Of a stretch of 45,448 nt of DNA, positions 7,842-35,813 are shown in pieces. A program made the translations under genes and the position numbers. The stretch comes from a virus (Duplodnaviria; Caudoviricetes), in the IMG/VR virus record IMGVR_UViG_3300032253_000003, positions 1-45,448 of that record; one strand, given 5' to 3'. Numbering within the stretch: the stretch's first letter is position 1; each line of letters starts with the position of its first letter. The notes beneath the pieces are model-generated. The model worked only from the letters and a program-made list of their open reading frames with translations, was not told where the DNA came from and searched no databases.

Positions 7842-7852
7842 GAGGGTAGATT

Positions 7853-8250: not shown

Positions 8251-8264
8251 GATAAGAGAGATAG

Positions 8265-8594: not shown

Positions 8595-8607
8595 GAGGTA
8601 GAAAACC

Positions 8608-8793
8608 ATGAGCAACCAACAAGAAAAGTATTTATTTGAATTTGAAGAAGACACCAGCCCTGAAGCATGGGCCGCTAAGAACTTAAAAGAAACTCGTAAA
8701 TCAATCAATGCAAATGTATTAGAGGTTATATCAAAAGAGGGGCGGGAATTGGCTATTGAACGCTCTCTGGAAGAGTCAAAGGCTGATAAGTGA
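8608..8793 (+). CDS. Hypothetical protein
   Basis: GAGG RBS; GTGA overlap with ninG. Confidence 0.65.
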   Translation: MSNQQEKYLFEFEEDTSPEAWAAKNLKETRKSINANVLEVISKEGRELAIERSLEESKADK

Positions 8794-13665: not shown

Positions 13666-14013
13666 TTAAAACTGACTAGGTATCACTATTACTTCAAACA
13701 GGTCATCAAGTGACGCACTTGCCATTGCCATTGCAATTATAGCATCACCAGAAACGGCATGGACAAGCTTTGAATTTGCATCAACCGTAAGTCTTGCCCC
13801 TCTTCCTACGGAGCCACCCGCCACTGCGAGCGATGGGCCAAACATCAATATTTCAACTTCATCGCTAGTCACGGCATCTGCTACGCCCATATATATTCCA
13901 ATAATTCTATCTGTTGCTGATGTTGCTGGCTCAACAGTAGCGTTTGTTGTGAATTTAACGGCGGTTCTAGCAACGATTGCAGAAGTGGCGCTGAATTTTC
14001 TAGTTAACATCAC
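13666..14013 (-). CDS. DUF2190-like capsid cement/decoration-type protein
   Basis: AGGSV.RGARLTVDANSKLV...IIAMAM.SA..DD pattern. Confidence 0.7.
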   Translation of the reverse strand: MMLTRKFSATSAIVARTAVKFTTNATVEPATSATDRIIGIYMGVADAVTSDEVEILMFGPSLAVAGGSVGRGARLTVDANSKLVHAVSGDAIIAMAMASASLDDLFEVIVIPSQF

Positions 14014-17758: not shown

Positions 17759-20700
17759 TTACTTATTCCGCTCTTTTCCTTCTACCAGTGAGCCCCATAC
17801 ACCCTGCTCTGGGTCTGACATCCCTTCGAGTGTTCGCGCTACCTGACCAGACCCGGGCAATGGAGCTAATGGCTGAAGCCCTCTTAATATGCTGGCCACT
17901 GTATTCGCATCCAGTTCATCGTCGCCCGTCATTAGTCCCTGCATTTCTTTACTTACTCTGATTGTTCCATCAACGAACTTTAATCCCGGTATAGAAGGGT
18001 TAAACCCATCCATTCCGCTGGCTAAATCTCTGACCAGAAACAATGACGACATATTGTAATATGCAATCTCCTTAAGTGCGTGAGGCAGTATTTTTTCCTC
18101 ATCTTCTGGAATATCATCGAGCACCCACATTGCCAATAAAGCAGGGGCAATGGCCATCCATCCTAATCTACGCGCATATTCCATAGGGTTAATATCGCCG
18201 TTCTTCAATAGCTGGGCATTCTCCACGTGAAGATTCCACGTTAAATTAAAGAATGTGCCCATGAAGGTTATTTGTTTCTCGGCCTCGCTCTTATTTAAAA
18301 TTGAGCCAACATCTTTAGAAAGCCCCGAACCTATGGTTTTTGCCACCATCTCATCGGCATATAAAATCGCTTTCTTTTCGCTCGCATTAGGATGATCTTT
18401 TTTATACTTACTTAATGCTCCCATCCATGTTGGATAAGCTATTAACGAGTCCATAAATGTTTGTGGAGCAAAGGCCATTGTTTTCATTTTTCCTAAAGCT
18501 GGATGAACTGAGTCTATTTTAAGTAACTGTTCACGTGCTTCACGGTTAACTAGCGCGGTCCGGTTTCGCATAAACGCGCTGGCCTCACTGATTTTATCCC
18601 AGTTTTCCCTCGGATTGCGGTAAAACTCAAAAGAACCCTTCAGTACATTTATGCCGCCAAGCTGTGAAATAGAGTTAGTCACGGCGATAGGCTGCTGGAC
18701 AATATTTCTAAGACTTCCCGCTAAGAATCCATAGGTTAGATTGGAGCGAACAAACTTTAATCCCTTCCATAATCCCTGTGCTGGGTTTTCTGGCTGGGTT
18801 AATGTGCTTAATGTATTAGTTAAATTGTTATAGTAAGGTTCCCCATGCCCTTTCATAATACTGGTTACTATCTCGTTATTCACGCCTTTAAACATTGAGT
18901 TCAGATGATCCGATAATTCAGCATAAGAAATATAATGAATCTCTTCCTGTATGTCCTGAAACAAATGGCCTAATTCTAAATCTACTTGGCGGCCGCCCGA
19001 GCCGACACGTTCATTCATTGATGAAGCCGTACCAATCTTAATAGATTTATTCTGAGCCCTATCGACCGTTATTTCAGTCCGGGCACTATCAGCAGGATCT
19101 TTTAAGTAATGCAGTCGATAATGGCCGCCTGTCAGCTTTACATCATTAACAGTAAACGGCAAAGCCTCGACTTTGGCCGGTGCCACGCCTTTTCGATTAA
19201 CCTCAACCTTTGACATCTCAGGCCATAGCGCATCCTTAGCTGCCCATATTTTATTTAATGCCTCAAGCTCAGGCCTTGACATGGTTGAAAGCATGGTCGT
19301 AATGTCATTTGCTGTGTAAGCATCGGGGAATTTAGCGTTAAGCCCTTCCAGCACAGCATCTCGATTTCCTTGATTACCCCAGTTTAAAGCGAGGGTAAAT
19401 CTAGCCCGGTGACTTAACGTAAAATCAACGCCATCAGCTTTTGTAATTGTTTCCTTCTTGAATTTGTTTATTTGTTTTGTCACGCCCTTAAAAGCTGCGT
19501 TCATAGAATCAGCCATTAAATCTGTCAGTTCTAATTCCTTATTGCTGGCATCGGTGATTTTTTCATATTCTTGAGCCATTGGGCCATCTTCTTTAAACCC
19601 GTCCAGCGTTTCAAATATTCCGCCGATACGTCTATGTGAGTAGCCAAACTCAAGAAAAGAATCTTTGATTCGCTCTGTTGTGGTTACCTCATGGCGCGGA
19701 GCAATTTTCTTTTTAGCAAACTTATCAATCGACTCAGCCGCTTCCTGCCGTTTAACCATTAATTCGTTCTTAGCCGTATCAGAAAGCTTGCCACCTACAA
19801 ACCGCATGTGCCGCAACTGATCGGTAAGCCCTTTTAATTCATTGGCTGTAAGGTCGTTAAATTCAGGCAACACATAATCAACCGGCTTCCCGTCTTGCCT
19901 GGCCACAATCATTTCAATAATATTGGGGTCAAATATAGACAGATCCACGTAGTTGTTTGGATCGTCCATTTGAGTGATCATCCAACTAACCACGCGCTCG
20001 ACATCTAATGACTTTCTTGCATCGCCCTGTCTCATGTTATAAGACTTAGCTAACATTCTTATGTTTTGAGCATACGAAGGATCTACCGATTTAGGTGTGT
20101 ATTCCCGTGTTTCAAAACCTTTCACCTGTTTGCGCTGCTTATTCATCTGGTCTCGCGCGGTTACCGCTTCACGATACAGATAATGATTAGCTATTTGCTG
20201 AGTCTTGGCGGTTAATATTTCCTGATCGTCGGTAGATGTCACCGCTTTTTTAGCCGCACGTATTTCAGCATGATAAAATTTATTAGGTTTTATCTCTTTG
20301 TACTTCATTGAACCGATTAACTTCTTAGCCTCAGCCTTAAGATACTCACGATTAATGGGTGATTTTTTCCGACTTAATGCGCGAATCTCTTGTATAACGA
20401 CTTTTGCCTGTTCTTCATTGTGAATCGACTCACGGGCCTCTAATTCAATACGGCCATCATTGAGCATGTCACCGTATTTCTCAACCATACGAGACTCAGC
20501 AGCATTATGTGCGGCAATCTTCAGAGTGGGCTGTGATGTTATTTCACTTACCATCTCTTTTACAGAGTTAAACCCGTATAGCTCGGCTACCGCTTGAGGA
20601 TCTGCCCCGTCTTTTTCAACAGTTCTATTTCTTAATTGCGGTGGAATTGAAGTAATATTACCAAGTTCTTTGAGTGATCCTCTATCCATCGGCATTTCAA

Positions 20701-23700
20701 GCGCAGCATCTAATACCTGATAGCTCGGGAGCTTTTCAAGCCTTGCTTTCTCTTCATCAATTAAAGGCTCGCGCTCATCATTCCATTCTTTGGTTTTACG
20801 TTTACGAAGCTCATCAATAACTTTTTGATTTAGATCAATAGTTGCTGTGTTTTTAGCTTTGTTAACTTGGCTCTGGTATTTATCCCACTCAGCATCGGTC
20901 ATACCGGCTTGTTCTTTTGATTTAAAGAACTGATCATAAGCCGGGTTAGCCATTGCCTGCTCTATCTCTGCCTCAGTAGCAAGCATTCTATCCATGTACT
21001 GGCGTATCTCAGGCGTTAAATCTGCATTCGCTAACCTTGGGTCAGTTAACGTGCGGTAGATGTTTGTAAGCCAGCGAGCGAAGGCGGCGAAAGTGTCTCG
21101 CAATTTTAATGACGGCGCTTTGCCTTCACGTAGATAAACTTCAAATGTTTCGGCAAATTTCTCATGCTCTTTAGTTGTCAGGTCTTCAAACGATTCAACC
21201 TCTAACCAATCGAGTAAAACCTTCTGGTCTTTAGTTTGACCGAATTTCTTTGCAAATCGGCTTTCCATCTCTAAAAATAAATGACCAGATTCGTGAAGGA
21301 ATGAACTTAGATCAGAGGCTTGAGTTAGCCTTATGATGCTTTCATTTTTGTCTGTGAATTCTATTGATGCTCGATCTGTGCCCGTATCTGGCTGGCCAAA
21401 TATTCTAGGATCTACGTCTGTGCCGGAAGTACCACGCTTAATTTCGTTCCCTTGGGCATCTCTGACAACTGCGCTAAATGGCTGTTCCCCGCGTCCGGTT
21501 CTTTCGCCTCTTCCTTCTCGGGCGATTTTTTCCGCTTTAAGTCTTTGGTCTGCGACATCTTTAGATTCTCCTATTCCGTATGTAACATTTAAGCCGGTTA
21601 GAGTAATGACTTTACCGTCTGGCTTCGTGGCTTTGATTATCGCTTGAGACAGAATCTCATCGACTTTCTTTAGTATAGTCTCAATTTCGGCTTGTGTTTC
21701 GCCCAGCACATAAAACTCATCACCTGAAATGTGATACGCGGCATCTGTTTGTGATTCAATAGCATCGGCCACGGCCTGCAAAAGTGCATCACCATGATCC
21801 GGGCTTAGATTGTCGTTTATCCATTTAAGGCTATCGGCATCAATTGAACCGACAACCGGTGCAGTTTGAACGTCAACCACAAAAGCTTTCCGACCTTTTA
21901 TCCCGGTAAGCTCATGCTTTAGTATTTGGTTGATTAATTCTTCCTGAGACATATCCGCGTATAAATCACGAGCTTTGCTTGACTTTCTTCTGTCACGGGC
22001 CTTATCGTCTGGTGTGGCTCTCTTTTCCGTTTCCTTGGTTTTATTTAAAATATTGGCTTTATCTGACTCTAGCCCAGCGATTCTTTTTTGAACGTCTGAT
22101 TTGCGTACATCATTATCAGGCATACCATCTAAAAGGCTTTGGTAGTTATCAATTCTATTGTTGATGCTGTCGTATATTTTTTTAGCATTAAAGCTTTCTG
22201 GCACAAGATCACTGATTTCAGTGGATTCTAAATCCATCTGTATTTCGACATCATCCGGTATTTTTGGCCTGGCTGTAACCGCCTCAGCTTCTACTTTTCC
22301 TTTGCCAGTTGAAAAGCCCATCATCTCATAGACTTCTTGCGGCTTAACATCATGCCCCATTAATCTTGCTTTCTCAACGTAAGTTGCAACCGCAGCAGGG
22401 TAGATAGCCGCACTATGTCGGGCTGTTTGCTCGCTTTGCATTCCTGTAGAGACAATCTGCTCTTTTACATCTTGATATATTTTTTCAGATTCCGTGACAA
22501 CTTCTTTTTCTTTTGCGACTTTATCAAGTAATGATTGAATCTCGCCGCGGTCACCTTCCTCTAATTCGGCCTGCGTTTGGGTGCCTTCGCTTAATTTTAT
22601 GTGAGGTCGTAATAACGCCATCCATTCATCATTCTTAGCTATCTCACTGACAAACTTACTCATGGGTATAGCAATATCAGCACCTAACTCATTAACCTGC
22701 TCAATGATGTAATCGGGGGCATTCTCCATATCCATTGCAACATCATTCGGGATAAGCACATCTCTATCGCCTACCGTTTTAATGAAGTCTTCAAACTGAC
22801 CGGCGGCGCGTTTATTCGTTGCGCTTGACTGCGCATAACTAATTACTTGGTCAATCGTGGCTTGTTCTTGGGTTGTTTGTTCATCGGTGATGATTTGCTG
22901 ATTTGTTTTATTAGTAACCGCCTCGACTGTGGCAGTGGTTGCTCGTATACCTCCACCCATACCCGCACCGGCAACCAGTCCGGCAAATTGTCTATCAAGC
23001 ATTTCAGTAGCGGATAATTTCTTTTTAGTACCCGCAGTCTCGCCAAGGTATTCAATTCCTTCTTGAATAAATTCGGTTCCACCTTCCACCGCCGCAGCAA
23101 CACCTGTAGCCTTCATTGCGCCTTTAATGCCTACCGCTTTTCCAACCCCAAACGTAAACTTTGCGCCCAGCCTTTCGGTTAAGGCCACAATGGTTGCCGG
23201 TATCAAAGATGTGGCAAGGTCGGCCCAGGTCACGTCTTCTCTTTGATCGTTTGTCACCCTGCTTTCTGCGATTTCTTCCGTTCTTGATGCAACATAAGCG
23301 GGAAGCGTATAAATTGCAGCAAGCATATGAGGCAATGATTGAATGCCTTGCTCTGCAATGTATCCGGCTAAATTTGTGGGTGTAACATCGCCTTTTAATT
23401 TCTCCCACGTAAAGCCTGGCTGATAATCAAACGCTTTCCCTTCTGATACCGCCTTACCAACATGAGTTAAAATACTCGGCGTTTCTACCGGCATATCCCA
23501 TGTCCACGAAATACCATCATCACCAATCATAATCCCCGGGTTAGGCATACCCGCAGAATTAACCATGAAATCATCGAAGTCCTCTGATACATTACCCATA
23601 ACTTCAATCAGATTTCCGGTCACGGAATTGACTGTATCTAGCCCTCCACGGGCCGCATTATTCCAGAATCCGCGCTCAGGCTCTTTTAGAGTATCTTCCA

Positions 23701-23992
23701 TGCCCTTAAGAATATCTAAATCATCAATTGCAACAGATGAGTTTTTTGGATCGGTTAACCATGTAGAAGTATTTGGGTGAGATTTTTCTAACTCAGGCAC
23801 GTTGATTTCAGCAATTAACTTTCGTCTTTCTATCTCAGGCTTATTGCTCTTATAAACTCGCCCATCAATTGGCGTTAAATTGCTCTCAGCTATAATGTCA
23901 GGGTCTCCACGACTTGCAATATCAAGCGATTCATTCAAGGTAGGCTTTGCAAACATGCCATTTAGTGATTTCAGCTCAGCATCATTTAGCAC
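17759..23992 (-). CDS. Large internal virion (ejection) protein with GGDEF-like domain and HExxH motif
   Basis: Position of T7 gp16 analogues; aa ~690-825 GGDEF-like (S756GDEF); H900ESGH. Confidence 0.8.
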   Translation of the reverse strand: MLNDAELKSLNGMFAKPTLNESLDIASRGDPDIIAESNLTPIDGRVYKSNKPEIERRKLIAEINVPELEKSHPNTSTWLTDPKNSSVAIDDLDILKGMEDTLKEPERGFWNNAARGGLDTVNSVTGNLIEVMGNVSEDFDDFMVNSAGMPNPGIMIGDDGISWTWDMPVETPSILTHVGKAVSEGKAFDYQPGFTWEKLKGDVTPTNLAGYIAEQGIQSLPHMLAAIYTLPAYVASRTEEIAESRVTNDQREDVTWADLATSLIPATIVALTERLGAKFTFGVGKAVGIKGAMKATGVAAAVEGGTEFIQEGIEYLGETAGTKKKLSATEMLDRQFAGLVAGAGMGGGIRATTATVEAVTNKTNQQIITDEQTTQEQATIDQVISYAQSSATNKRAAGQFEDFIKTVGDRDVLIPNDVAMDMENAPDYIIEQVNELGADIAIPMSKFVSEIAKNDEWMALLRPHIKLSEGTQTQAELEEGDRGEIQSLLDKVAKEKEVVTESEKIYQDVKEQIVSTGMQSEQTARHSAAIYPAAVATYVEKARLMGHDVKPQEVYEMMGFSTGKGKVEAEAVTARPKIPDDVEIQMDLESTEISDLVPESFNAKKIYDSINNRIDNYQSLLDGMPDNDVRKSDVQKRIAGLESDKANILNKTKETEKRATPDDKARDRRKSSKARDLYADMSQEELINQILKHELTGIKGRKAFVVDVQTAPVVGSIDADSLKWINDNLSPDHGDALLQAVADAIESQTDAAYHISGDEFYVLGETQAEIETILKKVDEILSQAIIKATKPDGKVITLTGLNVTYGIGESKDVADQRLKAEKIAREGRGERTGRGEQPFSAVVRDAQGNEIKRGTSGTDVDPRIFGQPDTGTDRASIEFTDKNESIIRLTQASDLSSFLHESGHLFLEMESRFAKKFGQTKDQKVLLDWLEVESFEDLTTKEHEKFAETFEVYLREGKAPSLKLRDTFAAFARWLTNIYRTLTDPRLANADLTPEIRQYMDRMLATEAEIEQAMANPAYDQFFKSKEQAGMTDAEWDKYQSQVNKAKNTATIDLNQKVIDELRKRKTKEWNDEREPLIDEEKARLEKLPSYQVLDAALEMPMDRGSLKELGNITSIPPQLRNRTVEKDGADPQAVAELYGFNSVKEMVSEITSQPTLKIAAHNAAESRMVEKYGDMLNDGRIELEARESIHNEEQAKVVIQEIRALSRKKSPINREYLKAEAKKLIGSMKYKEIKPNKFYHAEIRAAKKAVTSTDDQEILTAKTQQIANHYLYREAVTARDQMNKQRKQVKGFETREYTPKSVDPSYAQNIRMLAKSYNMRQGDARKSLDVERVVSWMITQMDDPNNYVDLSIFDPNIIEMIVARQDGKPVDYVLPEFNDLTANELKGLTDQLRHMRFVGGKLSDTAKNELMVKRQEAAESIDKFAKKKIAPRHEVTTTERIKDSFLEFGYSHRRIGGIFETLDGFKEDGPMAQEYEKITDASNKELELTDLMADSMNAAFKGVTKQINKFKKETITKADGVDFTLSHRARFTLALNWGNQGNRDAVLEGLNAKFPDAYTANDITTMLSTMSRPELEALNKIWAAKDALWPEMSKVEVNRKGVAPAKVEALPFTVNDVKLTGGHYRLHYLKDPADSARTEITVDRAQNKSIKIGTASSMNERVGSGGRQVDLELGHLFQDIQEEIHYISYAELSDHLNSMFKGVNNEIVTSIMKGHGEPYYNNLTNTLSTLTQPENPAQGLWKGLKFVRSNLTYGFLAGSLRNIVQQPIAVTNSISQLGGINVLKGSFEFYRNPRENWDKISEASAFMRNRTALVNREAREQLLKIDSVHPALGKMKTMAFAPQTFMDSLIAYPTWMGALSKYKKDHPNASEKKAILYADEMVAKTIGSGLSKDVGSILNKSEAEKQITFMGTFFNLTWNLHVENAQLLKNGDINPMEYARRLGWMAIAPALLAMWVLDDIPEDEEKILPHALKEIAYYNMSSLFLVRDLASGMDGFNPSIPGLKFVDGTIRVSKEMQGLMTGDDELDANTVASILRGLQPLAPLPGSGQVARTLEGMSDPEQGVWGSLVEGKERNK

Positions 23993-25559
23993 TACGTTGA
24001 TCCTTCAGTGTTTTATAAGCCTGCATAAACTGCGCATGGTCAGGATTTATCCCGTTATCCATGAAATATTGACTTATATCATTAAACGCATCCGGGTCAT
24101 CTTCTTTAGCCAGGTCAAGCATGTCAGTTTTTTCCTGCTCATCCATCTCAAATATCGGCTTGGTTCCACCCCACCACCATGAGGTATCCTGCTCCATTAA
24201 TGCATTGTCAATGTGCTTGTCGCGCTCTTCATTAGTTGGCGGGAACCCGTCTTTTTCTTGTTTATCCATAAACCATTCAGCTACAGACTCACTCAACTTA
24301 GCTTTTCTTTCTTTGGAGTAGCCCGGCGCTTTATTATTTATTGTTTGAGTAATAGTGAATAGAGATTTGTTTTCAGGTGTTACGCCATCAACCGATATTT
24401 TTGACCACTGCTTTTGCTGACTATCACTCAATGAACCCGCATTACTAATAAAGTAATCCCTTAAATCTTGGAATTTTTTAGTTTGATACAGTGTATTTAG
24501 ATCATCTTCAGCTCTAATATTAAACGGAGTCTTGTTTTTAGCCACAGATGATGACTGAGCCGACATTAAACTATTCTGCTGTGATGGGCTCATACGCTCC
24601 AAGTCTTCTCGGGGAATATCATTAATTGTTGACTCACCCATTCTCACAGGCAAAAAGTATTGATCAAATAATTCGGACTGATCTTCTATCACGGCTCGAT
24701 CTTGCTTATTCTTAGCGTAATCGTAGCGCTGTTCAATATCAGCTCTTAACTCTGGATCTTTGCTGTATTTTTTATCAATCTTTTCCATCACCTGTTTACG
24801 ATCAATCCCGGCACCCATGTACTCATCAACCTGAGTTTGCGCCTTGCCTATGCGCAGCTCTTCCTCAGTCGCATTTTTCAATGCCACGTACTGATCTGGT
24901 GGTAATTGATTTTTTAGCTGCTTCAGCGCCCACATGCGCTTCTCAACAGGCAACATAGACACATGCGCCTTTGCTGTGTCATCACGCATACTTTTAAGCA
25001 GGGCTGCGCCTTCAGCTTCGTTAATATAATTCAAAGCCCTGGCTGATTTAATAGAATTTGTATAACGCTGATTTGCGCCGCCTAAAGCTGTGGGATCTGG
25101 ATCTCTCAAAGCCGCATCACGAATATTATCCAAATTAGTCATTAATTCGGCTTTCTTAAAGTCTACTTTTTTCCCCCATGCTTGATTGCTAACCTGCTCA
25201 CCCTGACGGGCAATGTCTTTTTTATATTTATTAACAAAATTAGCGCGTCTTTTCGGATCGGTAATCTTTGCAGCAACTTCGCCAAGCTTGCCCGTAACAT
25301 CACCGTCAAACCGTTGACGCATAGTTTCATAATCATCATCTTCATCAAATGAGTTGGCAGAACTAATTAAGTTTGTGTACATTTCTGCATCAGCAATCGA
25401 TACCTCTTCGTCCATCTTGTTTTGATGAATTTGAGAAGTTACCTGTGCTACATCAAGCAAGCCTTGACTAATATTTGCACCAGCCCCGCGCGTATCTATA
25501 TTCCCGCTAACTTGTGGTGTGGCTCTGCTTAACTGAGTGTAATCGGGTATTTTTGGCAT
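23982..25559 (-). CDS. Internal virion protein (gp15-like position)
   Basis: MPKIP start, helical composition, synteny. Confidence 0.7.
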   Translation of the reverse strand: MPKIPDYTQLSRATPQVSGNIDTRGAGANISQGLLDVAQVTSQIHQNKMDEEVSIADAEMYTNLISSANSFDEDDDYETMRQRFDGDVTGKLGEVAAKITDPKRRANFVNKYKKDIARQGEQVSNQAWGKKVDFKKAELMTNLDNIRDAALRDPDPTALGGANQRYTNSIKSARALNYINEAEGAALLKSMRDDTAKAHVSMLPVEKRMWALKQLKNQLPPDQYVALKNATEEELRIGKAQTQVDEYMGAGIDRKQVMEKIDKKYSKDPELRADIEQRYDYAKNKQDRAVIEDQSELFDQYFLPVRMGESTINDIPREDLERMSPSQQNSLMSAQSSSVAKNKTPFNIRAEDDLNTLYQTKKFQDLRDYFISNAGSLSDSQQKQWSKISVDGVTPENKSLFTITQTINNKAPGYSKERKAKLSESVAEWFMDKQEKDGFPPTNEERDKHIDNALMEQDTSWWWGGTKPIFEMDEQEKTDMLDLAKEDDPDAFNDISQYFMDNGINPDHAQFMQAYKTLKDQRSAK

Positions 25560-25561
25560 TA

Positions 25562-25978
25562 TTAACCTTTATAAGCCTTATATATTCCAGCGCCACCACT
25601 TAATAGAGTAGTTAAAGCTCTTGTTTTTGACGCCTGCTTCTTTGTCTCGCCTTCATATAAACTGATATCTGCACCGGTTTCACCCTCATAAAGAGCGGCT
25701 AATGCATTGTAACTTGATTGTGCGCCAATATCCCCGATCACTTTTGTTGCGCCTGCATCGGTTGTGCTTCCACCGCCTGCGGCCATTGCTGCCCTTGCAT
25801 TGGATTCTAATATTTCGCCTTCTCTTCCTGCCTCATATGCTTTATGGCTACCGGCGGCCCTCTGTGTTTTTGCTTTAAATCTTGCTGACTTTTGAGCTGC
25901 CTCGCCTTCGGAAATAGAACCGGCAACACCAAGCATAGTGCTTGCCCCAACCAGGCTTAACGTTACTGGGTCGGCCAT
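25562..25978 (-). CDS. Small internal virion protein (gp14-like)
   Basis: MADPVT start, A/G-rich, hydrophobic ends, synteny. Confidence 0.75.
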   Translation of the reverse strand: MADPVTLSLVGASTMLGVAGSISEGEAAQKSARFKAKTQRAAGSHKAYEAGREGEILESNARAAMAAGGGSTTDAGATKVIGDIGAQSSYNALAALYEGETGADISLYEGETKKQASKTRALTTLLSGGAGIYKAYKG

Positions 25979-26325
25979 TTGTAAATCCTCTTATACATGT
26001 GCTCAAATCCAACGTATTCTAAAAATGACATTGAGTTTTCTTCCTTCTCGCTGGCCGAAGCATAAACAGGGTAATCATAGCTATTTAATATATCTCTCAT
26101 CTTTCTAGCCACCAATATAATGTATTTCTTATGATTCTTTAATTCAGCCTTCATGCTTCCAAAAGCTTGCAAGGGAGATGTATGCAAAACACCGGCAATG
26201 CCTAATATCTCACCATCTGATTCAACGACCACGCCTTTCATTGAAGCATCATACGGCTTGCCATAAAAAGAGATAATGTCATCTCTAGCCACCGGACGAA
26301 CGTGTAAGGTCGCCTTCAATCCCAT
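25963..26325 (-). CDS. GNAT-like tail assembly protein (gp13-like position)
   Basis: GEILGIAG ... SFLEYVGF pattern; synteny. Confidence 0.65.
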   Translation of the reverse strand: MGLKATLHVRPVARDDIISFYGKPYDASMKGVVVESDGEILGIAGVLHTSPLQAFGSMKAELKNHKKYIILVARKMRDILNSYDYPVYASASEKEENSMSFLEYVGFEHMYKRIYKWPTQ

Positions 26326-28930
26326 AAGACATCGCTAATATTGTGCATGGCCCTGTACCTCTTATGTAAATGCGTGGATCGACCTCAGTCTCGCCATCAA
26401 ATTCAAAAGCTATCTCGCTATAATCACTTATTGTAGCATTTGTGGCTAATGTTGTACCGTCTTCAATATCTGGTAAGTTTTTCAACAAGGCGACACTTGG
26501 CCCAACCTGTAATGATCCCGGCCAATAATTCATTAACACAAAGCTAGTATCTACAATTCGCTTTCGCTTATTTAAAACAGATACGTTATCAAATCCACTG
26601 AGTTTGTTTGATATATAATCAGAAGTGTAAGGAAGGCCGACAATAACACTGGCCCATGATGATGCAACCGTAACGCTCCCGCTTGATACGGTGTAAGTGC
26701 CTCTATCTTGACCATCAGCCCACACGCCCACCGTTTCGTCTTCTAAATGCGTTAACCCTGTGAGCGTTGTGCCATGCGATGTAAATCTAACAAAGCTATC
26801 AAAAGTCTCTGATGCAGTCCCGCCTACCGAGTCTTTGAACTTTGCCATTTTCTCAAGACACTTCAGCCCGCCTCGATTAACAACAACATAAACTCGATCC
26901 TCATCAGAAGAGGGCAAAGAAACAACATCCTCAATATTCCCAGACATGGTTAACCGATTCCAACCTGCCACTTCCTCGACCACATCAACGGTATAAACCG
27001 CCATATCGCCATTGTCTAACACAGCGTATATTCTTGTTTCTGGTTGCCTTACTGATGTTAAGCGGTGAATGCCCGAGTCACAAATTGTCTGATTTAAAAT
27101 AGTAGTGTCAAGCGTTTCAAAAACATCTCGATCAGCAAAATTATTCAATGAATATAGCTTTATTCCCGATCTCTGCACAAAGTATAAAGTCCCATCAATT
27201 TTAATAGGCTCGATATTCGCTGATCCCTGAGTCGAGCCGCTGCGTATATTGGCTGTTGATGGTGTTAGAATTTCACCGAATGAGCTAGACCTTAGGACAA
27301 CTTCATCGCCGGATGTACCCATGATCAACTGACCCGCTACTCGTATCCACTTAACCGGATCAGATGGCCCAAACCCTATCGTTCTGTGTATTGATGCAGA
27401 GTCCCCGAGAATGCCAATATCGAAAGAAAAATAAGCGTCACTTACAGACCCCCAAGCCTCGTCCTTACCAGCAAAAAACAATCTACCCTCAACTAAGTCA
27501 ACCGATGTAGGGAATTGCCTTGCATCGCTCCATGAGCCCTCATACCAATCAAGTGTCGCATCAGTTGAGCCAAAATCAGTTAACACCTGAATATCGACTA
27601 CTGTGGTGGATGTAAAACTGGTTACTTTGCATATCCCATCAATCGAACCTGAGGCATAATCAAGACTCAAAACCAAAGTATCTAATCCAGCGTTATCACC
27701 AGCTTTAACAAATAAACGGTAATAAAAAATAGAATTGTCAAATGTATCATTAAACGACTTATTCTGATTTGTTGTATAAGACTCAACATCATCCCATGTA
27801 CTATTATCAGCGCTACGCTGAAGCGTTACAGTGCCGGTCGCAAACCCAGTCGCTATCACTGTGAATGCCCTTGATGAGCTAACACCTGTTATGCGAACAG
27901 ATGACGTTCCTGCGCCAGTATCAACCGACACGCTGGCCGTTACCTTCTGTCCTGTTGAAGTGACCTTAAATAATGCGCCAACATGTCCCGCTTCAAATAA
28001 ATCAGCGCTTGCTGTTAATGTCGTGTCGCCGCTTAACGCGCCAGGGGTCAATGTTATTGCACTTGAATTAATAACCTCAAATGGGCCGTCTTCTGTGCGA
28101 AAATCAACAACCGACCACGATTTATCGCCCCTATGCTCTATCTGAAATATCTTCCCGTTATCAAACGTGCAAAAAGTAATATCACCCGATTGAACCGTGC
28201 GTTGTGAATTCATAAATGCACTGGTCATTGGTGTATCTATAACCAGGTTAGCGGTTCCGGTATCAAACGACACGGAGTCAATTAATGATGCGTATTTCTT
28301 TGAGTTCTCGAACGTGATTGTAATATTTGCTGAAGGCGTGAAGTTTAATACATGTTCTCCAGGCTTTAACGTGGCGCTAAAAATATCAAAGCTGCTTGCC
28401 CCGCTAGTGCCAATCTTAACCACGCAAGGCGCACGATTAATAACAATCCGCATGAAGTGTTCGACATTTAATTCAGTTGTGGCAATTGTTTGATATGAAA
28501 CCGCATTGCTTGACCCGTCCCCTGTTAAAGCCAGTGCGCCGGTGGCATGCCACGCAGTTGTCGCGCTACCACTTGAAGCATCAGTCCAGCTTGTTATATT
28601 TGCACTAAAGGTTCCGTTAAGAATGGGGGTTGTGACAGCAGAAACAGTAATCGGTACGTCATTTACAACAAATTCAACCTTGTCATTGTAGAAGTCTAAT
28701 ATCGCGGTATCATCTACCGCCGCAATAAAATCAACTAATCTATGGGCGTATGTTGCATTGACGTTGGATATAAACTCACTGCCTGGGCGATATATCATAT
28801 TGCCGAGGCGTGAAGGGATAAAGTTTACCATTGAGGATGCGGACTCATTTACCCGCTTGATGTCTTCACGAGCCAAAGCCCTTTGATCTATTTCACCTCG
28901 ATTAAAATGTAGAACCGTACCTGTTAACAT
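26285..28930 (-). CDS. Tail tubular protein B (nozzle, T7 gp12-like)
   Basis: FNRGEID, RPGSEF, FPTSV...GRLFF, FVQRSG, GL.HLE.ETV.VWADG, VGLPY motifs. Confidence 0.88.
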   Translation of the reverse strand: MLTGTVLHFNRGEIDQRALAREDIKRVNESASSMVNFIPSRLGNMIYRPGSEFISNVNATYAHRLVDFIAAVDDTAILDFYNDKVEFVVNDVPITVSAVTTPILNGTFSANITSWTDASSGSATTAWHATGALALTGDGSSNAVSYQTIATTELNVEHFMRIVINRAPCVVKIGTSGASSFDIFSATLKPGEHVLNFTPSANITITFENSKKYASLIDSVSFDTGTANLVIDTPMTSAFMNSQRTVQSGDITFCTFDNGKIFQIEHRGDKSWSVVDFRTEDGPFEVINSSAITLTPGALSGDTTLTASADLFEAGHVGALFKVTSTGQKVTASVSVDTGAGTSSVRITGVSSSRAFTVIATGFATGTVTLQRSADNSTWDDVESYTTNQNKSFNDTFDNSIFYYRLFVKAGDNAGLDTLVLSLDYASGSIDGICKVTSFTSTTVVDIQVLTDFGSTDATLDWYEGSWSDARQFPTSVDLVEGRLFFAGKDEAWGSVSDAYFSFDIGILGDSASIHRTIGFGPSDPVKWIRVAGQLIMGTSGDEVVLRSSSFGEILTPSTANIRSGSTQGSANIEPIKIDGTLYFVQRSGIKLYSLNNFADRDVFETLDTTILNQTICDSGIHRLTSVRQPETRIYAVLDNGDMAVYTVDVVEEVAGWNRLTMSGNIEDVVSLPSSDEDRVYVVVNRGGLKCLEKMAKFKDSVGGTASETFDSFVRFTSHGTTLTGLTHLEDETVGVWADGQDRGTYTVSSGSVTVASSWASVIVGLPYTSDYISNKLSGFDNVSVLNKRKRIVDTSFVLMNYWPGSLQVGPSVALLKNLPDIEDGTTLATNATISDYSEIAFEFDGETEVDPRIYIRGTGPCTILAMSYGIEGDLTRSSGG

Positions 28931-28969
28931 TGCTTTGACCTAAAAAATTATTATATGCATGGGGTTTTA

Positions 28970-30151
28970 CTAAGGTCTGTTGCGATACCCGCCTTTAAAT
29001 CGACTGCTTGACCATCTACCATTAGCTAATTGCCTTGGCGGGCTTTGCATCGCATCGTTAGCTATAGCTGATGATTTTCTTTTTTCATAAATCGCATTAG
29101 CTATATTAAAGTCAGCGCCTTCTTTTTTTAAGCTGGGCGAGGCATCATTAGCCATTCGTCCGGCAATAAGACGTTTAAAATAAGTTGGCCATGATGAAGG
29201 ATTAACCAAGAAGCTATCATTAATATACTGTAAATAGTATTCGTCTTGATCGGTGAATATCCAGTCGCCCTCATCTTTGTACAGCTTTAAAGGTTGCTGC
29301 ATGTACTCATCATAGAATATTCCGTCGATTCTATGCATGTCAGTTGGCTTCTGGTGGGCTCTTCGATACCCCCACGCAGGCTCAACAGATGGATCATAGT
29401 AACTTTTAGTTGATGTGGTGGAGAATATCCAACCAGTATCCTCAAGCTCATCAGAAACAATACCCGCATCTAAAACACGATCAAGCTTAGTCCTGCGGTT
29501 AGAGTCATCTGTATTGGTCGATATTTCATCCAGACCCATGATAATAAGCGCGTCATTGTAGATTAATCGCCATTCATTGGTTAGAGTGTTAGTTGTTACA
29601 GACGAGCGCTTTGCTGGCTCCTTGGTTGCTTCTAACCCTTTTGATATCTCTATCCGCTCAGCAAGAAGCACATTCATGTCTTCTGTTTGATTCGGGGCGA
29701 GCTTTATACTTATTTCACGTGCTAGATAAGCCGCAACAACGCGAGAGAATGAAGGTGACCAATTAGAAAAATCAGTAACTACATCATCAGAGATATAACG
29801 AAGGTAGATAGTGGGGTATTCGCATGAGAGCGTATTGCCCTCAATGATATATCGATTAACTTCCTGATCTAAATTAGCATCAGAATATACACCAACAACA
29901 GTTATATAATCGCTTGGCAATGTTTGAACACTGTCAAGATCATGGTTAGCGCTTGGGGTGACCGAACTAATTAATAGCGTTTTACGCGCAAATACCGGTT
30001 TAGCAACTTCTAAGCAATATTCAATTGCGTCTAACGCATACGAGGCATCTAATAAATGCCTCGGCTCTCTGTCTTCAGTTAGGCTGGATAAGCTTCGTTG
30101 CCCAATCAATAACAGTGAGTTGTTGTATAGACTAAGCTTATCGACCGCCAT
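28970..30151 (-). CDS. Tail tubular protein A (adaptor, gp11-like), tandemly duplicated domain
   Basis: YNNSLLLIG/YNDALIIMG and WSPSFSRVVA/WPTYFKRLIA repeats. Confidence 0.8.
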   Translation of the reverse strand: MAVDKLSLYNNSLLLIGQRSLSSLTEDREPRHLLDASYALDAIEYCLEVAKPVFARKTLLISSVTPSANHDLDSVQTLPSDYITVVGVYSDANLDQEVNRYIIEGNTLSCEYPTIYLRYISDDVVTDFSNWSPSFSRVVAAYLAREISIKLAPNQTEDMNVLLAERIEISKGLEATKEPAKRSSVTTNTLTNEWRLIYNDALIIMGLDEISTNTDDSNRRTKLDRVLDAGIVSDELEDTGWIFSTTSTKSYYDPSVEPAWGYRRAHQKPTDMHRIDGIFYDEYMQQPLKLYKDEGDWIFTDQDEYYLQYINDSFLVNPSSWPTYFKRLIAGRMANDASPSLKKEGADFNIANAIYEKRKSSAIANDAMQSPPRQLANGRWSSSRFKGGYRNRP

Positions 30152-30152
30152 T

Positions 30153-30611
30153 TTAAGACCTCAGGGCTTTAACGTAATCTTCCATTTCTTTCATTGCGAA
30201 TGTTGATGTCGCTATCCCTTCTTTTATAATTTCACCTGTGGATTGCTTAATTAAGCACCACTTTTTAGGGCCCCGTAGCTTAATTTCATAACCTGATAGC
30301 TCGGTAGCTGATGTCTCAGTACTAACAACATCAAGTTTATGCATTGAAATAATCTTAATCTTTGCCGTAGAACCTTGTGCAAAGGTGCAGATACCATAAG
30401 CAACAAAAGACATATCATCAGCTAAACAGCGAACTTCGCTACCCATGATCATTTTATTTGCAACATTTACCCATAAATCTGGATCTTCTAAATCAATTTT
30501 TTTTAATACCCCTGAAACATTGGCATCGAATTGTGTGATCTTGTGACTAACCAACCCGAAGTCGGAAGGTCGCAATGCCTCAATCTTTAGTTTTTTATCA
30601 GCCGTAGCCAT
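30153..30611 (-). CDS. Hypothetical protein in head-tail region
   Basis: GAGG RBS, synteny. Confidence 0.75.
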   Translation of the reverse strand: MATADKKLKIEALRPSDFGLVSHKITQFDANVSGVLKKIDLEDPDLWVNVANKMIMGSEVRCLADDMSFVAYGICTFAQGSTAKIKIISMHKLDVVSTETSATELSGYEIKLRGPKKWCLIKQSTGEIIKEGIATSTFAMKEMEDYVKALRS

Positions 30612-30628
30612 TATTCACCTCGAAAGTT

Positions 30629-30660
30629 AAAAGAACCGACCCCCGAAGGGGCTAGTCTTG
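30629..30660 (-). terminator. Intrinsic terminator after capsid/decoration genes
   Basis: Minus strand GCCCC-UUCG-GGGGU hairpin followed by U-run. Confidence 0.8.
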
Positions 30661-30668
30661 TTTACTGA

Positions 30669-30953
30669 TTAATCAGTGTCAGTTGCAGTAATTGCCGTGC
30701 CATCAGTTAGATCGCAAGCGCCTCCCGCAGTAACACTGTTTACCAGGTAGATATGTCCCACTGTGCCGCCAGCCGTATCCGTATGAAAGACAATATCACC
30801 GACTGCAACGCCGAGGTCATCAGCATTAGTGATATAACCAGCCACGCGAACTACAGTAGCCGCATCTGTAGAGTTATACATCCAGATTGCACCACCAGCA
30901 GCGCCTACACGTTGTGTAATGCAAGCAGGAGGGTTTGTAGTAGCATATGCCAT
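30669..30953 (-). CDS. Probable capsid decoration protein
   Basis: Small A/T/G/V-rich ORF directly after major capsid gene. Confidence 0.7.
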   Translation of the reverse strand: MAYATTNPPACITQRVGAAGGAIWMYNSTDAATVVRVAGYITNADDLGVAVGDIVFHTDTAGGTVGHIYLVNSVTAGGACDLTDGTAITATDTD

Positions 30954-31023
30954 TGTATTTTCCTCTTAATTAAATTTACAAATCAAGTAGGCTCACTCAG
31001 AAGCACTACATTGGTCACATGAT

Positions 31024-31851
31024 TTAGCTAAGAGCGCTGTCATCGTGTAACATCTTAACTACGCCGCTATTCTGGAGTAATTTAGATCCCATGTAGGTAG
31101 AGCAACGCGCCCAAGATTTATCATTCTTGTCGTCGTAACCCACGAATGTACTAATGCTTTCGGTATCACAAGCATGACCAATAGCCTGTCGTGAATACAT
31201 GTAGCATGTAGAACTTGCAGTACCAGCACCAGGCAAGCCAGCATCAACAATCCAGTTTACACCGTACCAGTTAAACGCCATTGACTTACTTACGTTTTCA
31301 AAGGGTTTTAGGTTGATGTAATCAGCAGAGGTGAACTGATTTAATCCCATCAGGTAACCGTGGAATGCAGGCGTAATAAGCGCAAAAGGCTCTTCTTCCA
31401 GTGCAAACGCATTGCCTAGTTTGGTTTTAGCAGTTGATACCAGTGTTAGAGTCGCTACAGCAGCAGCACCCCATGTCACAGTAGCAGTGGTTAGTGCGGC
31501 ATGAATGTCTGTGTCGATCTTGCGATTAACAACAGCCATTGATGTTTCTTGCATAATACGACGACCGTCGCCTTGAGATGCAAACAGGTTAAAGTTTGTA
31601 CGCTCTGGAACATCGTGCCATTCTTGCAAGGTTGCACTAAATTGATTTAAGTTGTCTGGGCGCGTAGGAATGTCTCCATTTACGCCGCGAGTTACCGCAG
31701 AAGCTCCACCGGAATCAGCTACAAGAAACACGGCTGTATTGCCATTAATCTCAGTCTCAGTCGTAACAGTACGACGGGCTAAAGATTGACGTTTCTCGAA
31801 ACCTGCGATGAATTCTTTTCTATACATAGTCTGAAACGCAGTATCAGCCAT
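31024..31851 (-). CDS. Major capsid protein
   Basis: MADTAFQTMYRKEFIAGFE...AVTRGVNGDIP podovirus capsid family; follows scaffold; AGGAG RBS. Confidence 0.88.
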   Translation of the reverse strand: MADTAFQTMYRKEFIAGFEKRQSLARRTVTTETEINGNTAVFLVADSGGASAVTRGVNGDIPTRPDNLNQFSATLQEWHDVPERTNFNLFASQGDGRRIMQETSMAVVNRKIDTDIHAALTTATVTWGAAAVATLTLVSTAKTKLGNAFALEEEPFALITPAFHGYLMGLNQFTSADYINLKPFENVSKSMAFNWYGVNWIVDAGLPGAGTASSTCYMYSRQAIGHACDTESISTFVGYDDKNDKSWARCSTYMGSKLLQNSGVVKMLHDDSALS

Positions 31852-31900
31852 GACTTTTCTCCTAAAAATAATATATTAAAAATTACAATATACTAGTAGT

Positions 31901-32021
31901 CTGAGTTAGCCATGATCTGATCCATGATGCGAGTTAGCCGCTAGGGGTCGCTAGAATCATACTAATGGGGTCTTTCTATTAGTTCAGGGTTAAGTATAGA
32001 ATATTTACAGGCATAATTCAA
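31901..32021 (-). promoter_or_regulatory. Capsid-gene promoter and structured 5' leader
   Basis: TTGAAT(32021-16)-17-TATACT(31998-93); leader has GACCCC and GGCUAACUC twice each in nested stems. Confidence 0.6.
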
Positions 32022-32521
32022 CAAAGCTGCCTGTCTCCGTGATTTTCGTGGAATCTGTGTTTTTTCTCTGCATCTTTTCTTGCCTTTATCGCCTCTGTTT
32101 TTTTATCAAACAAGCCTAAATGCAATGACTTTCTATTAATATATATTGAAGCTACCCACTTCTCTGCTTGCTTATGCCATCCTACGCCAATATGGCCACT
32201 TGTATTATCTGATGGTATCCTTATATTTTTAAGATTATCTCCATGAGAAACATCCTTTAGATTGATAATTCTATTATTATCCTTATAACCATCATCGTGA
32301 TCTATTTCGTCTGGCATGATCCCATAAACATACAGCCAAGCCATCCTGTGTAGATAGTATTCTTTGTAGTCTATGCTTGTTCTCATGTAGCCCTTTTTAT
32401 TGAGGCTTCCAGGGCTAGATCCTGCAATCGCTCTATTATTTAGGGTTATTTTTCTGGTAAAAATACCACTATCAGGATCATAGATAAATAGCTCTTTCAG
32501 TCTTTCTTGTGTCAGCTTCAT
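32018..32521 (-). CDS. Free-standing HNH-AP2 homing endonuclease
   Basis: LTQERLKEL..YDPDSGIF, HRMAWLYVYG, IDH.DG...NNRI.NL, NTSG..GV.W...W.A.I, LGLF....A..AR. Confidence 0.92.
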   Translation of the reverse strand: MKLTQERLKELFIYDPDSGIFTRKITLNNRAIAGSSPGSLNKKGYMRTSIDYKEYYLHRMAWLYVYGIMPDEIDHDDGYKDNNRIINLKDVSHGDNLKNIRIPSDNTSGHIGVGWHKQAEKWVASIYINRKSLHLGLFDKKTEAIKARKDAEKKHRFHENHGDRQLC

Positions 32522-32620
32522 TGCATACTCCGAATAAGTATATCGACAATAAATAAGAAGGCAGGCAGGTTATCGAGTCCTGCTTTTCGGGGTATCCCCC
32601 TAGCCGTCAGTATTATAACA
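32522..32620 (-). ncRNA. c4-like structured leader RNA with own promoter
   Basis: TGtTATAAT then GGCUAGGGGGAUACCCCGAAAAGCAGG-loop-CCUGCCUGCC and an RBS-occluding hairpin. Confidence 0.6.
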
Positions 32621-32658
32621 TTAAAGCCATCCTTGGCGGTGGAAAGTCCTCGTCGGGG

Positions 32659-33648
32659 TTAACTGGCCATTCTTTCTTTAGCGGTGACTAAATCTTGATA
32701 TCGCTTCTGTGAGTCGAGGTCTTTATACCATTCAGGTGTACCCATTTTGCCCTCAAGCGCTTTAATCTCATCAGTCATTGTCTGCATGGGGTTAGCTGAG
32801 TTAGGAACTACGGTTGCAGATGGATTGATCTTTCTGGCCCATTCTGCCATTGCAACCATCATTTCAGGGCTGTTAAATACCGCTTTACCGTCTGGCATAC
32901 GGGCTGATTCAAACTGCTCTTTAATAGACTCAGGCAATTGATTAATTAAACCGCTGACCACATTCAAGTTGGTTGTGAAGTCTCCGCCCCATGCTTCTTT
33001 AAGCTGCTTTTGAGTCATTTGCTGGTCAATGCCGTCCTGGCTTACCATTGCATCAACCTTGGCCTGCTCGCTTCTCAGCATTGAGTTAACTATATCACTC
33101 ATAACTTCTGATTTTACATCGCCTTTATGAGCTATCTTATAAACATCAGCCAAAGTCTCTTCATCACCCTCACCAAGAACTAACCCTTCCTCTAGGGTTA
33201 AGCTATAATCTTCCGGGGTCTGAGGTATTCCGTTGGCTTCTCGATAATCGGACATTTGCTCATCTGTTGGGTTTTCAGGCAGCCCGGTACTTACCTCGCC
33301 TGCTCTAATCTTTTCCTGTGCAGATAGATAGTTTTTAGTAAACACGCCGATATCTGATACACGATCAAGCTGCTTCATTGCTTTGTCGAAGTCATCACCT
33401 GCTTCATACCCAGCTTTAGTTAGTGCCTGTGATCGCCAGTCTTCGGGCACAGTTGCAAAGTAGTCAACCGGAGCGCCATCACCGGAACCAGGGGAATCAT
33501 CTCCTGCACCCGCATCGCCAGTATCTCCACCCGCGTCACCAGCCCCAGCCTCACCGCCGCCACCTTCGCCGCCTTCATCACCATCAATCATGTTAATAAA
33601 TCTGCGTGACATCGCGCCAAATCGCATCGCTTGATTACGTCTCTTCAT
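32659..33648 (-). CDS. Capsid scaffolding protein
   Basis: G/D-rich N-terminus, GIPQTPEDY, LKEAWGGDF; lies between portal and capsid. Confidence 0.8.
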   Translation of the reverse strand: MKRRNQAMRFGAMSRRFINMIDGDEGGEGGGGEAGAGDAGGDTGDAGAGDDSPGSGDGAPVDYFATVPEDWRSQALTKAGYEAGDDFDKAMKQLDRVSDIGVFTKNYLSAQEKIRAGEVSTGLPENPTDEQMSDYREANGIPQTPEDYSLTLEEGLVLGEGDEETLADVYKIAHKGDVKSEVMSDIVNSMLRSEQAKVDAMVSQDGIDQQMTQKQLKEAWGGDFTTNLNVVSGLINQLPESIKEQFESARMPDGKAVFNSPEMMVAMAEWARKINPSATVVPNSANPMQTMTDEIKALEGKMGTPEWYKDLDSQKRYQDLVTAKERMAS

Positions 33649-33922
33649 CTTCTTTCACCTCATTATCTAGTTGCCCGACAGGGATTTGTAAATGTTTTAG
33701 AATCTCATGACCCACAAAGGCCCGCCCATTAAGGAATGCAGACTGATCGAATGAATCAGGAATATAAAGGGTATTATGCGCTCGACTGAACTTGTTAACA
33801 ATAACTGATAGTGCAAGGCGTTGCTGATACTCGTTTGCCTCGCCTTTATTTAGCGATGTAAGAGCTTGATGCTCTTCTTTTGTTAGCGCTTTATAGCGGA
33901 AACATGCTTTCTTAGCTGCCAT
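33635..33922 (-). CDS. Bbp19-like conserved podovirus protein
   Basis: SAFLNGRAFVG motif after portal. Confidence 0.7.
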   Translation of the reverse strand: MAAKKACFRYKALTKEEHQALTSLNKGEANEYQQRLALSVIVNKFSRAHNTLYIPDSFDQSAFLNGRAFVGHEILKHLQIPVGQLDNEVKEDEET

Positions 33923-35491: not shown

Positions 35492-35494
35492 GGT

Positions 35495-35812
35495 TTACCC
35501 CAGCGTTCCGCCGTCATTTGTTAGCATTGTGCCTGCACGACCAGCCTTTGCGTATTTGCGCTGTGATGCTCGCTGTTTAGCTCTCCTTAACAGTTCGTCA
35601 TCCGGTGTCGGTGCCGTTGCACCAGGTTTATCAGGGCCCGGTATTTCTGGTATCAGCACATCCTGTACAGCTCCTACCCCGGCCTTTGCGCCACGCTTTA
35701 ATTGACCTGAAACATCAAGCGGATCAGCTAAAAACTTTAAAGGATCATTCTTTATCTTCTTACCTATACTCTTTGCTCCGCGCTTGAGCGCGCTACCTAT
35801 GCCCCATCCCAT
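35495..35812 (-). CDS. Small virion-associated protein
   Basis: Likely start MGWGIG after GGAG; PTPDD...GRAGTMLT...TLG tail typical of gene before portal. Confidence 0.7.
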   Translation of the reverse strand: MGWGIGSALKRGAKSIGKKIKNDPLKFLADPLDVSGQLKRGAKAGVGAVQDVLIPEIPGPDKPGATAPTPDDELLRRAKQRASQRKYAKAGRAGTMLTNDGGTLG

Positions 35813-35813
35813 A

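Follow-up and report, generated by a model that had tools for sequence, protein, structure and literature searches.

The virus record IMGVR_UViG_3300032253_000003 (Duplodnaviria; Caudoviricetes) is linear, 45,448 bases long and ~89% complete, and is referred to below, at its full length, as the window. On its minus strand it encodes a large protein that carries a GGDEF domain, the module of diguanylate cyclases. A reading of the letters made without database searches (the sequence-only reading) had proposed that this domain lacks the inhibitory I-site, that it lies inside a phage ejection protein, and that the virion may deliver it as a pre-made cyclic-dinucleotide synthase. The present analysis points to a real, probably active, feedback-free GGDEF domain carried as cargo in a predicted ejection protein. 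The earlier interpretation is supported in part: the fold, the residues, the missing I-site and the carrier class stood, and the suggested novelty did not. The features of the carrier are as follows.

17759..23992, minus strand: polyvalent internal-virion protein (IVP-D / T7 gp16-position), 2,077 aa, GTG start; phrog_9880 E 5e-201; Bbp10 homology
23678..23860, minus strand: LPD22 domain, a polyvalent-protein marker, aa 45-105; 31.6 bits, cut-off 28.6
22943..23344, minus strand: Gly/Ala-rich, moderately hydrophobic stretch, aa ~217-350; hydropathy peaks of 1.0-1.4 at aa 217-281, 32-34% Gly+Ala at aa 251-350
22283..22975, minus strand: conserved scaffold segment, aa 340-570, upstream border of the cargo slot
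20933..21415, minus strand: HExxH segment (H900-E-S-G-H904, then H-E-K-F-A), metallopeptidase-like, downstream border of the slot
17762..20935, minus strand: C-terminal body common to Bbp10, Carin-1 gp32, phage AF gp16 and others

The carrier reading frame is open over all 2,077 aa, and an opposite-strand open reading frame (ORF) at 21333-21647 is regarded as a shadow frame. The alignment to Bbp10 of phage BPP-1 starts at carrier aa 871 and shows 25% identity over 1,332 columns (E 3e-91); Bbp10 is listed in Table 2 of Hardies et al. (PMC4819975) as a homolog of the T7 internal virion protein (IVP) of class D, gp16. By homology to this assigned IVP-D and by syntenic position the carrier is of the IVP-D / T7 gp16 type, as the proposed class of large ejection protein would have it. 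It also shows the marks of a polyvalent protein, namely LPD22 above cut-off and an unrelated enzymatic domain (GGDEF) in a gene at a late virion position. By segment searches, the protein runs from LPD22 through a scaffold (to aa ~570) and the cargo slot to the HExxH segment (aa 860-1020) and the body. The HExxH motif is present in 119/119 scaffold relatives (the best 119 of 498, many partial or split, 33 with both slot borders visible), with the H, E, H, E and HE residues invariant, and Pfam and PDB sequence searches with the alignment of this segment gave no meaningful match. The Gly/Ala-rich stretch is a candidate membrane-inserting part.

The features of the GGDEF domain are listed next; counts out of 200 refer to a conservation set of 200 domains from 192 proteins of one phage clade (the clade below), most of the domains being 30-50% identical to the window domain.

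21479..21991, minus strand: GGDEF module of the phage clade, aa 668-838, with two N-terminal helices, palm core and C-terminal tail
21917..21991, minus strand: N-terminal RR...R...MS-x-EEL helices, aa 668-692; R668 in 160, R669 in 168, R675 in 177 and M681 in 176 of 200 domains
21788..21892, minus strand: substrate residues R701, D718, K723, N726, D727 and D735; roles by alignment to DgcR and GacA
21713..21754, minus strand: SQTD (no RxxD), then YHI-SGDEF (S756, G757, D758, E759, F760)
21479..21529, minus strand: clade signature K822-x2-R-x3-G-x-R831-x2-R834-G-x2-P838; in 43/45 polyvalent, 6/6 YuA-type and 0/72 cellular domains

Two of the checks proposed by the sequence-only reading, a profile search and a structure prediction, returned a GGDEF domain. 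Against a cut-off of 23.8 bits, Pfam GGDEF (PF00990) scored 26.2 on the full protein (E 7.8e-6) and 31.2 on aa 661-845 taken alone; the TIGR00254 match stayed below its cut-off (30.9 vs 37.4). The AlphaFold2 model of the domain, built on an alignment of 41 relatives (pLDDT 91.5, pTM 0.83), has a palm fold with the xGDEF motif at a beta-hairpin turn. Among the PDB matches listed by Foldseek there are GGDEF proteins only (best E 6.7e-9), and VIA-align gave Z 16.7 to DgcB and Z 16.1 to DgcR (rmsd 1.9 over 137 residues), both solved diguanylate cyclases. The GGDEF domain is real and covers aa ~668-838; the span of ~690-825 first suggested falls inside the module, which is conserved over the wider stretch. 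A chance or degenerate match was ruled out by the Pfam cut-off, the structure match and the conservation described below. A Cas10/mCpol identity was rejected, since Csm1_B matched only below threshold and the listed structural matches were all GGDEF proteins. The N-terminal helices lie where cellular cyclases have their coiled-coil stalk and may take its role; a PilZ-like RxxxR reading of their RR motif was dropped because the spacing differs. Homodimer prediction with GTP and Mg scored 0.50, one unrelated control scored 0.60, and the result was not counted either way.

Every motif quoted by the sequence-only reading lies where it had been placed, and its D758/E759 numbering is right: H693-E-L-T-G, D718 (in DADSLKWINDN), H733-G-D735, S747-Q-T-D750, Y753-H-I-S756-G-D758-E759-F and A814-D...K822. 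The kept catalytic set comprises the metal ligands, the fourth-position Glu, the catalytic Lys and the phosphate-binding Lys/Arg (D718, D758, E759, K723, K822, R831). Mapped on DgcR, the conserved positions correspond to the ligands of the metal, the Lys lying over the alpha-phosphate, the Asn that binds guanine and the residues at the gamma-phosphate. R831 is the last residue of the structural alignment, where it falls on DgcR 294 / PleD 447, at or next to the Arg of the gamma-phosphate (R293 in DgcR). The guanine-specifying Asp (D735) is kept, as had been claimed, and so are the two other guanine readers, N726 and the cross-dimer Arg R701. Asp and Arg at the D735 and R701 positions are reported to favour guanine (Hallberg 2019; PMC8041772), and the same two positions redirect GacA to cyclic GMP-AMP (cGAMP) (Hallberg 2019). 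GTP is the predicted substrate, since both positions are canonical here; a Hypr (cGAMP) assignment was rejected, the domain having D735 and R701 instead of Ser/Thr and a non-Arg residue. The R-x-G-G-D/E-E-F context is not exact (H754-I-S756-GDEF); the SGDEF enzymes ECA3270 and MbaA are described as active. The RxxD I-site is lacking, SQTD standing in its place as first noted, and other inhibitory sites are possible. RxxD occurs in 2/196 clade domains vs 56/72 cellular ones; in the smaller set compared with those cellular domains it is found in 1/45 polyvalent and 0/6 YuA-type domains. The stretch that leads up to the I-site loop is ~3 residues shorter than in cellular domains (median 38 vs 41, counted between the first metal Asp and the motif).

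These residues are held across the clade. D718, N726, G734 and K822 are present in 200/200 domains, D758 and E759 in 198, D727 in 198, R831 in 196, K723 in 194 and D735 in 185, counts that are biased upward because the members were collected by similarity, which is to be held against any case for activity built on them. The clade also shares a remodelled active-site surround, with His before the motif in 174 of the 200 domains, Ser in first position in 171, Trp724 in 174 and a C-terminal R-x-x-R-G tail in 195-196; the His is found in 44/45 polyvalent vs 0/72 cellular domains, a contrast that was partly selected by the scan pattern. The two departures that the sequence-only reading had raised as caveats, His before the motif and SP for GH, are present but recur in the clade (Pro at the GH His position in 31/200) and are not private decay; two more had gone unlisted, H693 for the DxLT Asp and Lys819 for the conserved helix-4 Tyr. 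In 15/200 domains the guanine-reading Asp is changed (12 Asn, 2 Thr, 1 Glu), which makes them candidates for other products.

The clade, which is marked by YHISGDEF, the loss of RxxD and a C-terminal R-x-x-R-G-x-x-P tail, looks large, and 166 of the 192 proteins are longer than 1,000 aa. A further 52 large proteins containing the domain came from a region search, on LPD22, LPD38, LPD1/5 and DarB-like scaffolds. A profile search of 1.84 billion representatives returned 900 clusters at E<=1e-30, the top 150 of which were inspected; most of the 900 are probably clade members, because cellular GGDEFs score far lower on the clade profile (44-82 bits vs 101-237 for the clade). Of the 51 matching records among 50,697 phage records, 48 are from YuA-like phages, whose 'diguanylate cyclase' gene stands alone, and no cultured phage with a fusion of GGDEF and ejection protein was found among them. 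A quick tree of 124 domains, made without bootstrap and leaving out 30 of 35 near-identical gut-phage rows and 7 duplicates, placed 44 polyvalent and 6 YuA-type domains together (SH-aLRT 84, a moderate support), apart from 69 cellular ones. In bacterial genomes (30 of 64 parts scanned), 8 of the best 80 loci belong to the clade, all on contigs of 4-67 kb from metagenome-assembled genomes, and the plasmid search gave six weak matches only (E>=2e-7). A separate group of 35 near-identical, stand-alone GGDEF proteins of 183 aa from viral contigs (L045-L079) has HISGDEF without RxxD, Lys at the cross-dimer Arg position, and no C-terminal tail.

Signs of catalysis come from relatives. Eight proteins (P0057-P0064) hold two tandem copies of the domain, and xGDE is kept in 15/16 copies, which fits an enzyme that acts in pairs; in P0059 the acidic motif residues of one copy are gone. 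Three of these tandem proteins (478-544 aa) contain little else and are ready-made assay constructs. A pyrophosphatase domain occurs in 50/166 large GGDEF-bearing proteins, on either side of the GGDEF domain and at a median distance of 91 aa, vs 456 aa for ADP-ribosyltransferase (ART) and 537 aa for RadC domains, and it is nearer than ART in 8/10 and nearer than RadC in 9/10 proteins that hold both. The pairing changes label 29 times on the tree, at least 9 of the changes being forced by strong branches, with kin not independent. Clearance of pyrophosphate in replication or transcription was the role proposed for polyvalent pyrophosphatases by Iyer et al. 2017 (PMC5512222). The tandem copies and the recurrent pyrophosphatase neighbours favour a working enzyme. 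In four proteins (P0040, P0076, P0125, P0160) the GGDEF domain has a neighbour at 41-62 aa, an Acb1-like 2H phosphoesterase in which both HxT motifs are present, so that a nucleotide eraser stands beside a writer.

The slot in which the domain sits is hypervariable, scaffold relatives holding nucleases, ADP-ribosyltransferases or nothing. Among eight cultured relatives it contains PBECR1 in Bbp10, PBECR5 in Carin-1, GNAT in Vibrio 1.185.O, LPD23 in AF and an ADP-ribosyltransferase in JessA; nothing was recognised in PS25B.1 and HU1, and the slot is empty in MZH0603. The survey of homologous ejection proteins suggested by the sequence-only reading, carried out on the 119 best relatives, found this GGDEF in one; it is present in 0/33 slot-complete relatives, in which slot length runs from 0 to ~1,600 aa, and in 0/14 viral loci found via the HExxH segment. 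Five proteins with domains 66-70% identical to that of the window have bodies merely 24-26% identical, and full-length relatives at 57-58% body identity are without the domain. Similar domains on divergent bodies, and similar bodies without the domain, show that the GGDEF domain is swappable cargo that moves between scaffolds. Some relatives are naturally split at the slot (L171, P0003), with the cargo on the C-terminal polypeptide together with the HExxH segment and body; in the close relative L171:1900-11134 the gene is broken into a part of 629 aa and one of 1,982 aa, the latter with ART and RadC cargo, and two ORFs of 96 and 322 aa are inserted between them. The window copy is a simple case, GGDEF being its sole recognised cargo. 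Recent uptake from a bacterium is unsupported, as the GC content of the domain is like that of its flanks and the domain groups with phage sequences.

The genes around the carrier form a podovirus-type virion block.

23982..25978, minus strand: two genes upstream of the carrier, at T7 gp14/gp15 positions; 138 aa, phrog_418 internal virion protein, and 525 aa without family match
26285..37304, minus strand: podovirus-type structural block; tail nozzle, tail tubular protein, major capsid, portal and large terminase by family matches

The gene order is terminase, portal, capsid, tail tubular protein, nozzle, phrog_418 protein, 525-aa protein, carrier and tail-fibre-like genes. The two adjacent tail-fibre-like genes (14010-17722, minus strand) have a common N-terminal module of ~100 aa (phrog_11518 and others), and an HNH-AP2 homing endonuclease gene (32018-32521, minus strand) stands directly upstream of the major capsid gene. 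Genes of lambdoid type for recombination and replication (Rad52-like annealase, Gp157, SSB, NinG, DnaB) lie at 5462-9353 (plus strand) and 43873-45216 (minus strand). The major capsid protein (31024-31851, minus strand) has a single weak match among the 50,697 phage records, so that the phage appears distant from cultured isolates; the best helicase matches include marine gammaproteobacterial phages at ~40% identity, too weak for host assignment. No terminal repeat was found in the record, and no integrase or repressor was recognised among its scanned ORFs, at ~89% completeness.

From the observed fold, residues, layout and mobility, we infer a chain of events that runs through packaging, topology, dimerisation, activity, product and host benefit. 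By analogy with other IVP-D proteins, the carrier is likely packaged in about four copies; IVP-D of phiRIO-1 was measured at 4+/-2 copies, and IVPs are described as housing cytoplasm-bound domains, such as the N4 virion RNA polymerase (Hardies et al., PMC4819975). The carrier would enter the host by ejection along with the DNA, and its Gly/Ala-rich stretch (aa ~217-350) would interact with the inner membrane in such a way that the cargo is left in the cytoplasm; the HExxH segment could possibly release that cargo. Two domains would be paired, in place of the dimerising stalk, either because the ejection protein oligomerises or by means of the short N-terminal helices. The domain is probably catalytically active, and if it is, its product is quite likely to be 3',3'-cyclic di-GMP (c-di-GMP), which would be made in a pulse from host GTP before phage gene expression and without product inhibition. 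Yield was calculated for two dimers, per femtolitre and over 10 min, with the rates of DgcR (PMC8041772). At the activated kcat of 0.33/s it would be ~0.66 uM. Such a concentration of c-di-GMP is within the signalling range. The benefit, the weakest step, would be a fast conditioning of the host by way of the c-di-GMP receptors it already has (arrested motility, altered pili or receptors, effects on the cell cycle); fast receptor action is favoured over biofilm growth because lytic cycles are short. Raising c-di-GMP has precedent as a phage strategy in the YIP peptides of PB1-like Pseudomonas phages, for which a benefit of this sort is also discussed (PMC8085984). Since c-di-GMP is also reported to control the N4 receptor, the direction of any superinfection effect would depend on the host. 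The whole chain, an injected and unbraked c-di-GMP synthase, is held tentatively, at somewhat short of an even chance.

Several points weigh against this chain. The Asp of DxLT is H693 in the window domain, and the Arg before the motif, present in 72/72 cellular domains, is H754. Residues that DgcR-based modelling places in the productive dimer interface are altered (H187 to P731, Y286 to K819); of the DgcR contacts D183/Y286 and H187/D282, D727 and D815 are kept, and P731 and K819 replace the His and the Tyr. The R701 position is Arg in 143/200 clade domains vs 94% of cellular cyclases, and Ser in the first motif position is reported to have inactivated VCA0965. The window protein has no pyrophosphatase, nor has any of the 17 GGDEF-bearing proteins with its scaffold, and the pyrophosphatase frequency stands without a background rate from other polyvalent proteins. 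The domain is dispensable, 118 of the 119 nearest scaffold relatives, many of them partial or split, being without it. The hydropathy of the carrier is too weak to settle its topology, and the yield at the basal kcat of DgcR (0.01/s) would be ~0.02 uM only. The literature searched, in which subscription coverage was poor, gave no activity test of a phage-encoded or virion-borne GGDEF domain and no demonstration of a virion-delivered second-messenger synthase.

The altered interface residues could leave the product open to alternatives, and the delivered, active enzyme might make a nucleotide other than the ordinary motility signal (linear pppGpG, cGAMP or a different linkage), serving as a decoy or a jammer against nucleotide-signalled defences such as CBASS or Panoptes. 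The clade-wide remodelling (His, Ser, Trp724, C-terminal tail) surrounds the active site, the guanine-reading positions vary in the clade (D735 in the 12 Asn, 2 Thr and 1 Glu domains, R701 with 57 non-Arg), the other cargoes of the slot are conflict effectors, an Acb1-like phosphoesterase lies close to the domain in the four proteins named above, and palm-fold relatives such as OptS yield non-canonical products. However, the window copy keeps N726, D735 and R701, which predicts GTP specificity, the 2H pairing is rare (3/166 large proteins plus one fragment) and absent from the window protein, and the data link the clade to no defence system; a product of this kind is considered rather unlikely. 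That hundreds of phage lineages inject a pre-made, remodelled enzyme of this clade whose nucleotide jams or decoys nucleotide-based immunity is likewise unlikely. If it were true, a pyrophosphatase drawing the reaction forward, or an Acb1-like nuclease destroying the alarm of the host, would accompany the enzyme in some phages, and phage counter-defence would be writing a signal, not erasing one.

The domain might instead be a non-catalytic nucleotide- or protein-binding module, acting as a sensor of GTP or c-di-GMP or as a poison of host cyclase dimers. The altered interface, the lost Arg before the motif, the precedent of VCA0965 and the lack of a sensor or long coiled coil ahead of the domain all fit such a module, but the metal ligands, fourth-position Glu, transition-state Lys and phosphate-binding Lys are near-invariant in the 200 domains, tandem copies keep their catalytic residues, and pyrophosphatases recur nearby in relatives, so that it is judged improbable. 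Little weight is likewise given to an enzyme that is active only from protein newly made late in infection or in a lysogen, or that is trimmed off at assembly, with no virion delivery. Its appeal is that YuA gp44, of the sister group, is a stand-alone gene outside the virion block, that the HExxH segment could process the protein much as P1 DdrB is cleaved before packaging, and that L171 and P0003 are split at the cargo slot; yet the virion RNA polymerase of N4, which sits within an IVP-D homolog, is packaged whole, the cargo of split relatives stays with the HExxH segment and C-terminal body, and 166/192 clade proteins exceed 1,000 aa.

The preferred reading, an injected c-di-GMP synthase, would, if the domain is active, mean a virion-delivered second-messenger synthase by which a phage sets the global signalling state of its host at entry. 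The fusion, which the sequence-only reading had thought might be new, was already in print: Iyer et al. 2017 (PMC5512222) placed GGDEF among the domains of phage and prophage polyvalent proteins as 'not very widespread', gave an Acetonema prophage example with GGDEF and MPTase, predicted virion delivery and proposed interference with host nucleotide responses. The window domain is a further member of the kind predicted there, one of hundreds and with no distinguishing feature. Its value is practical, because the concept has been in print since 2017 with no test found: the module is small (~170 aa), well delimited and confidently predicted to fold, natural tandems exist that need no engineered dimer, the sister group is present in cultured YuA, and a small unbraked cyclase would be a useful tool.

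The polyvalent GGDEFs of Iyer et al. likewise stand among unrelated effectors in giant late-gene proteins with LPD22 and an HExxH segment. The difference is that the clade here looks large and has a definable signature, whereas their text, as far as available, neither describes the motifs nor reports a test. Among named relatives, the YuA gp44-type proteins of Yuavirus and Bordetella siphoviruses are closest (30-46% identity) and form the sister group in the tree. They share SGDEF, the missing RxxD, SLKWINDN, short N-terminal helices and the R-x-x-R-G tail (6/6), but are free proteins of 156 aa encoded outside the structural block, and in them the DxLT Asp is canonical and the motif is preceded by Arg; these genes are mentioned in a review and a genome paper, in which activity is assumed. 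Further sources cited are PMC6456294, PMC3974145, PMC8079147, PMC13725321, PMC10333796, PMC8471281, PMC12657218, PMC7824862, PMC8669472 and bioRxiv 10.64898/2026.02.16.706137.

With DgcR, PleD, WspR, DgcB and SiaD the window domain shares the fold (Z 14.5-16.7) and the metal, phosphate and guanine-reading residues; unlike these canonical cyclases, it has no sensor and no RxxD, His for Arg before the motif, Ser in first position, altered dimer contacts and an extra C-terminal tail. The carrier has the same scaffold, LPD22 through HExxH segment to body, as BPP-1 Bbp10 and the epsilon15-group IVP-D proteins (Carin-1 gp32, AF gp16, JessA gp39, CP2 ORF24), and its gene likewise follows those of the nozzle and of two smaller internal proteins, but its slot holds other cargo. 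In the palm-fold cyclases of the Hypr type (GacA) and of Panoptes (OptS/mCpol), small active-site changes redirect the product; the Ser and Tyr of GacA are Asp and Arg in the window domain, which keeps the linear xGDEF that OptS nearly lacks. The YIP peptides are also a phage means of raising host c-di-GMP, but they are described as acting through the host cyclase YfiN after gene expression and are not enzymes (PMC8085984), whereas the domain described here would bring the enzyme in with the virion.

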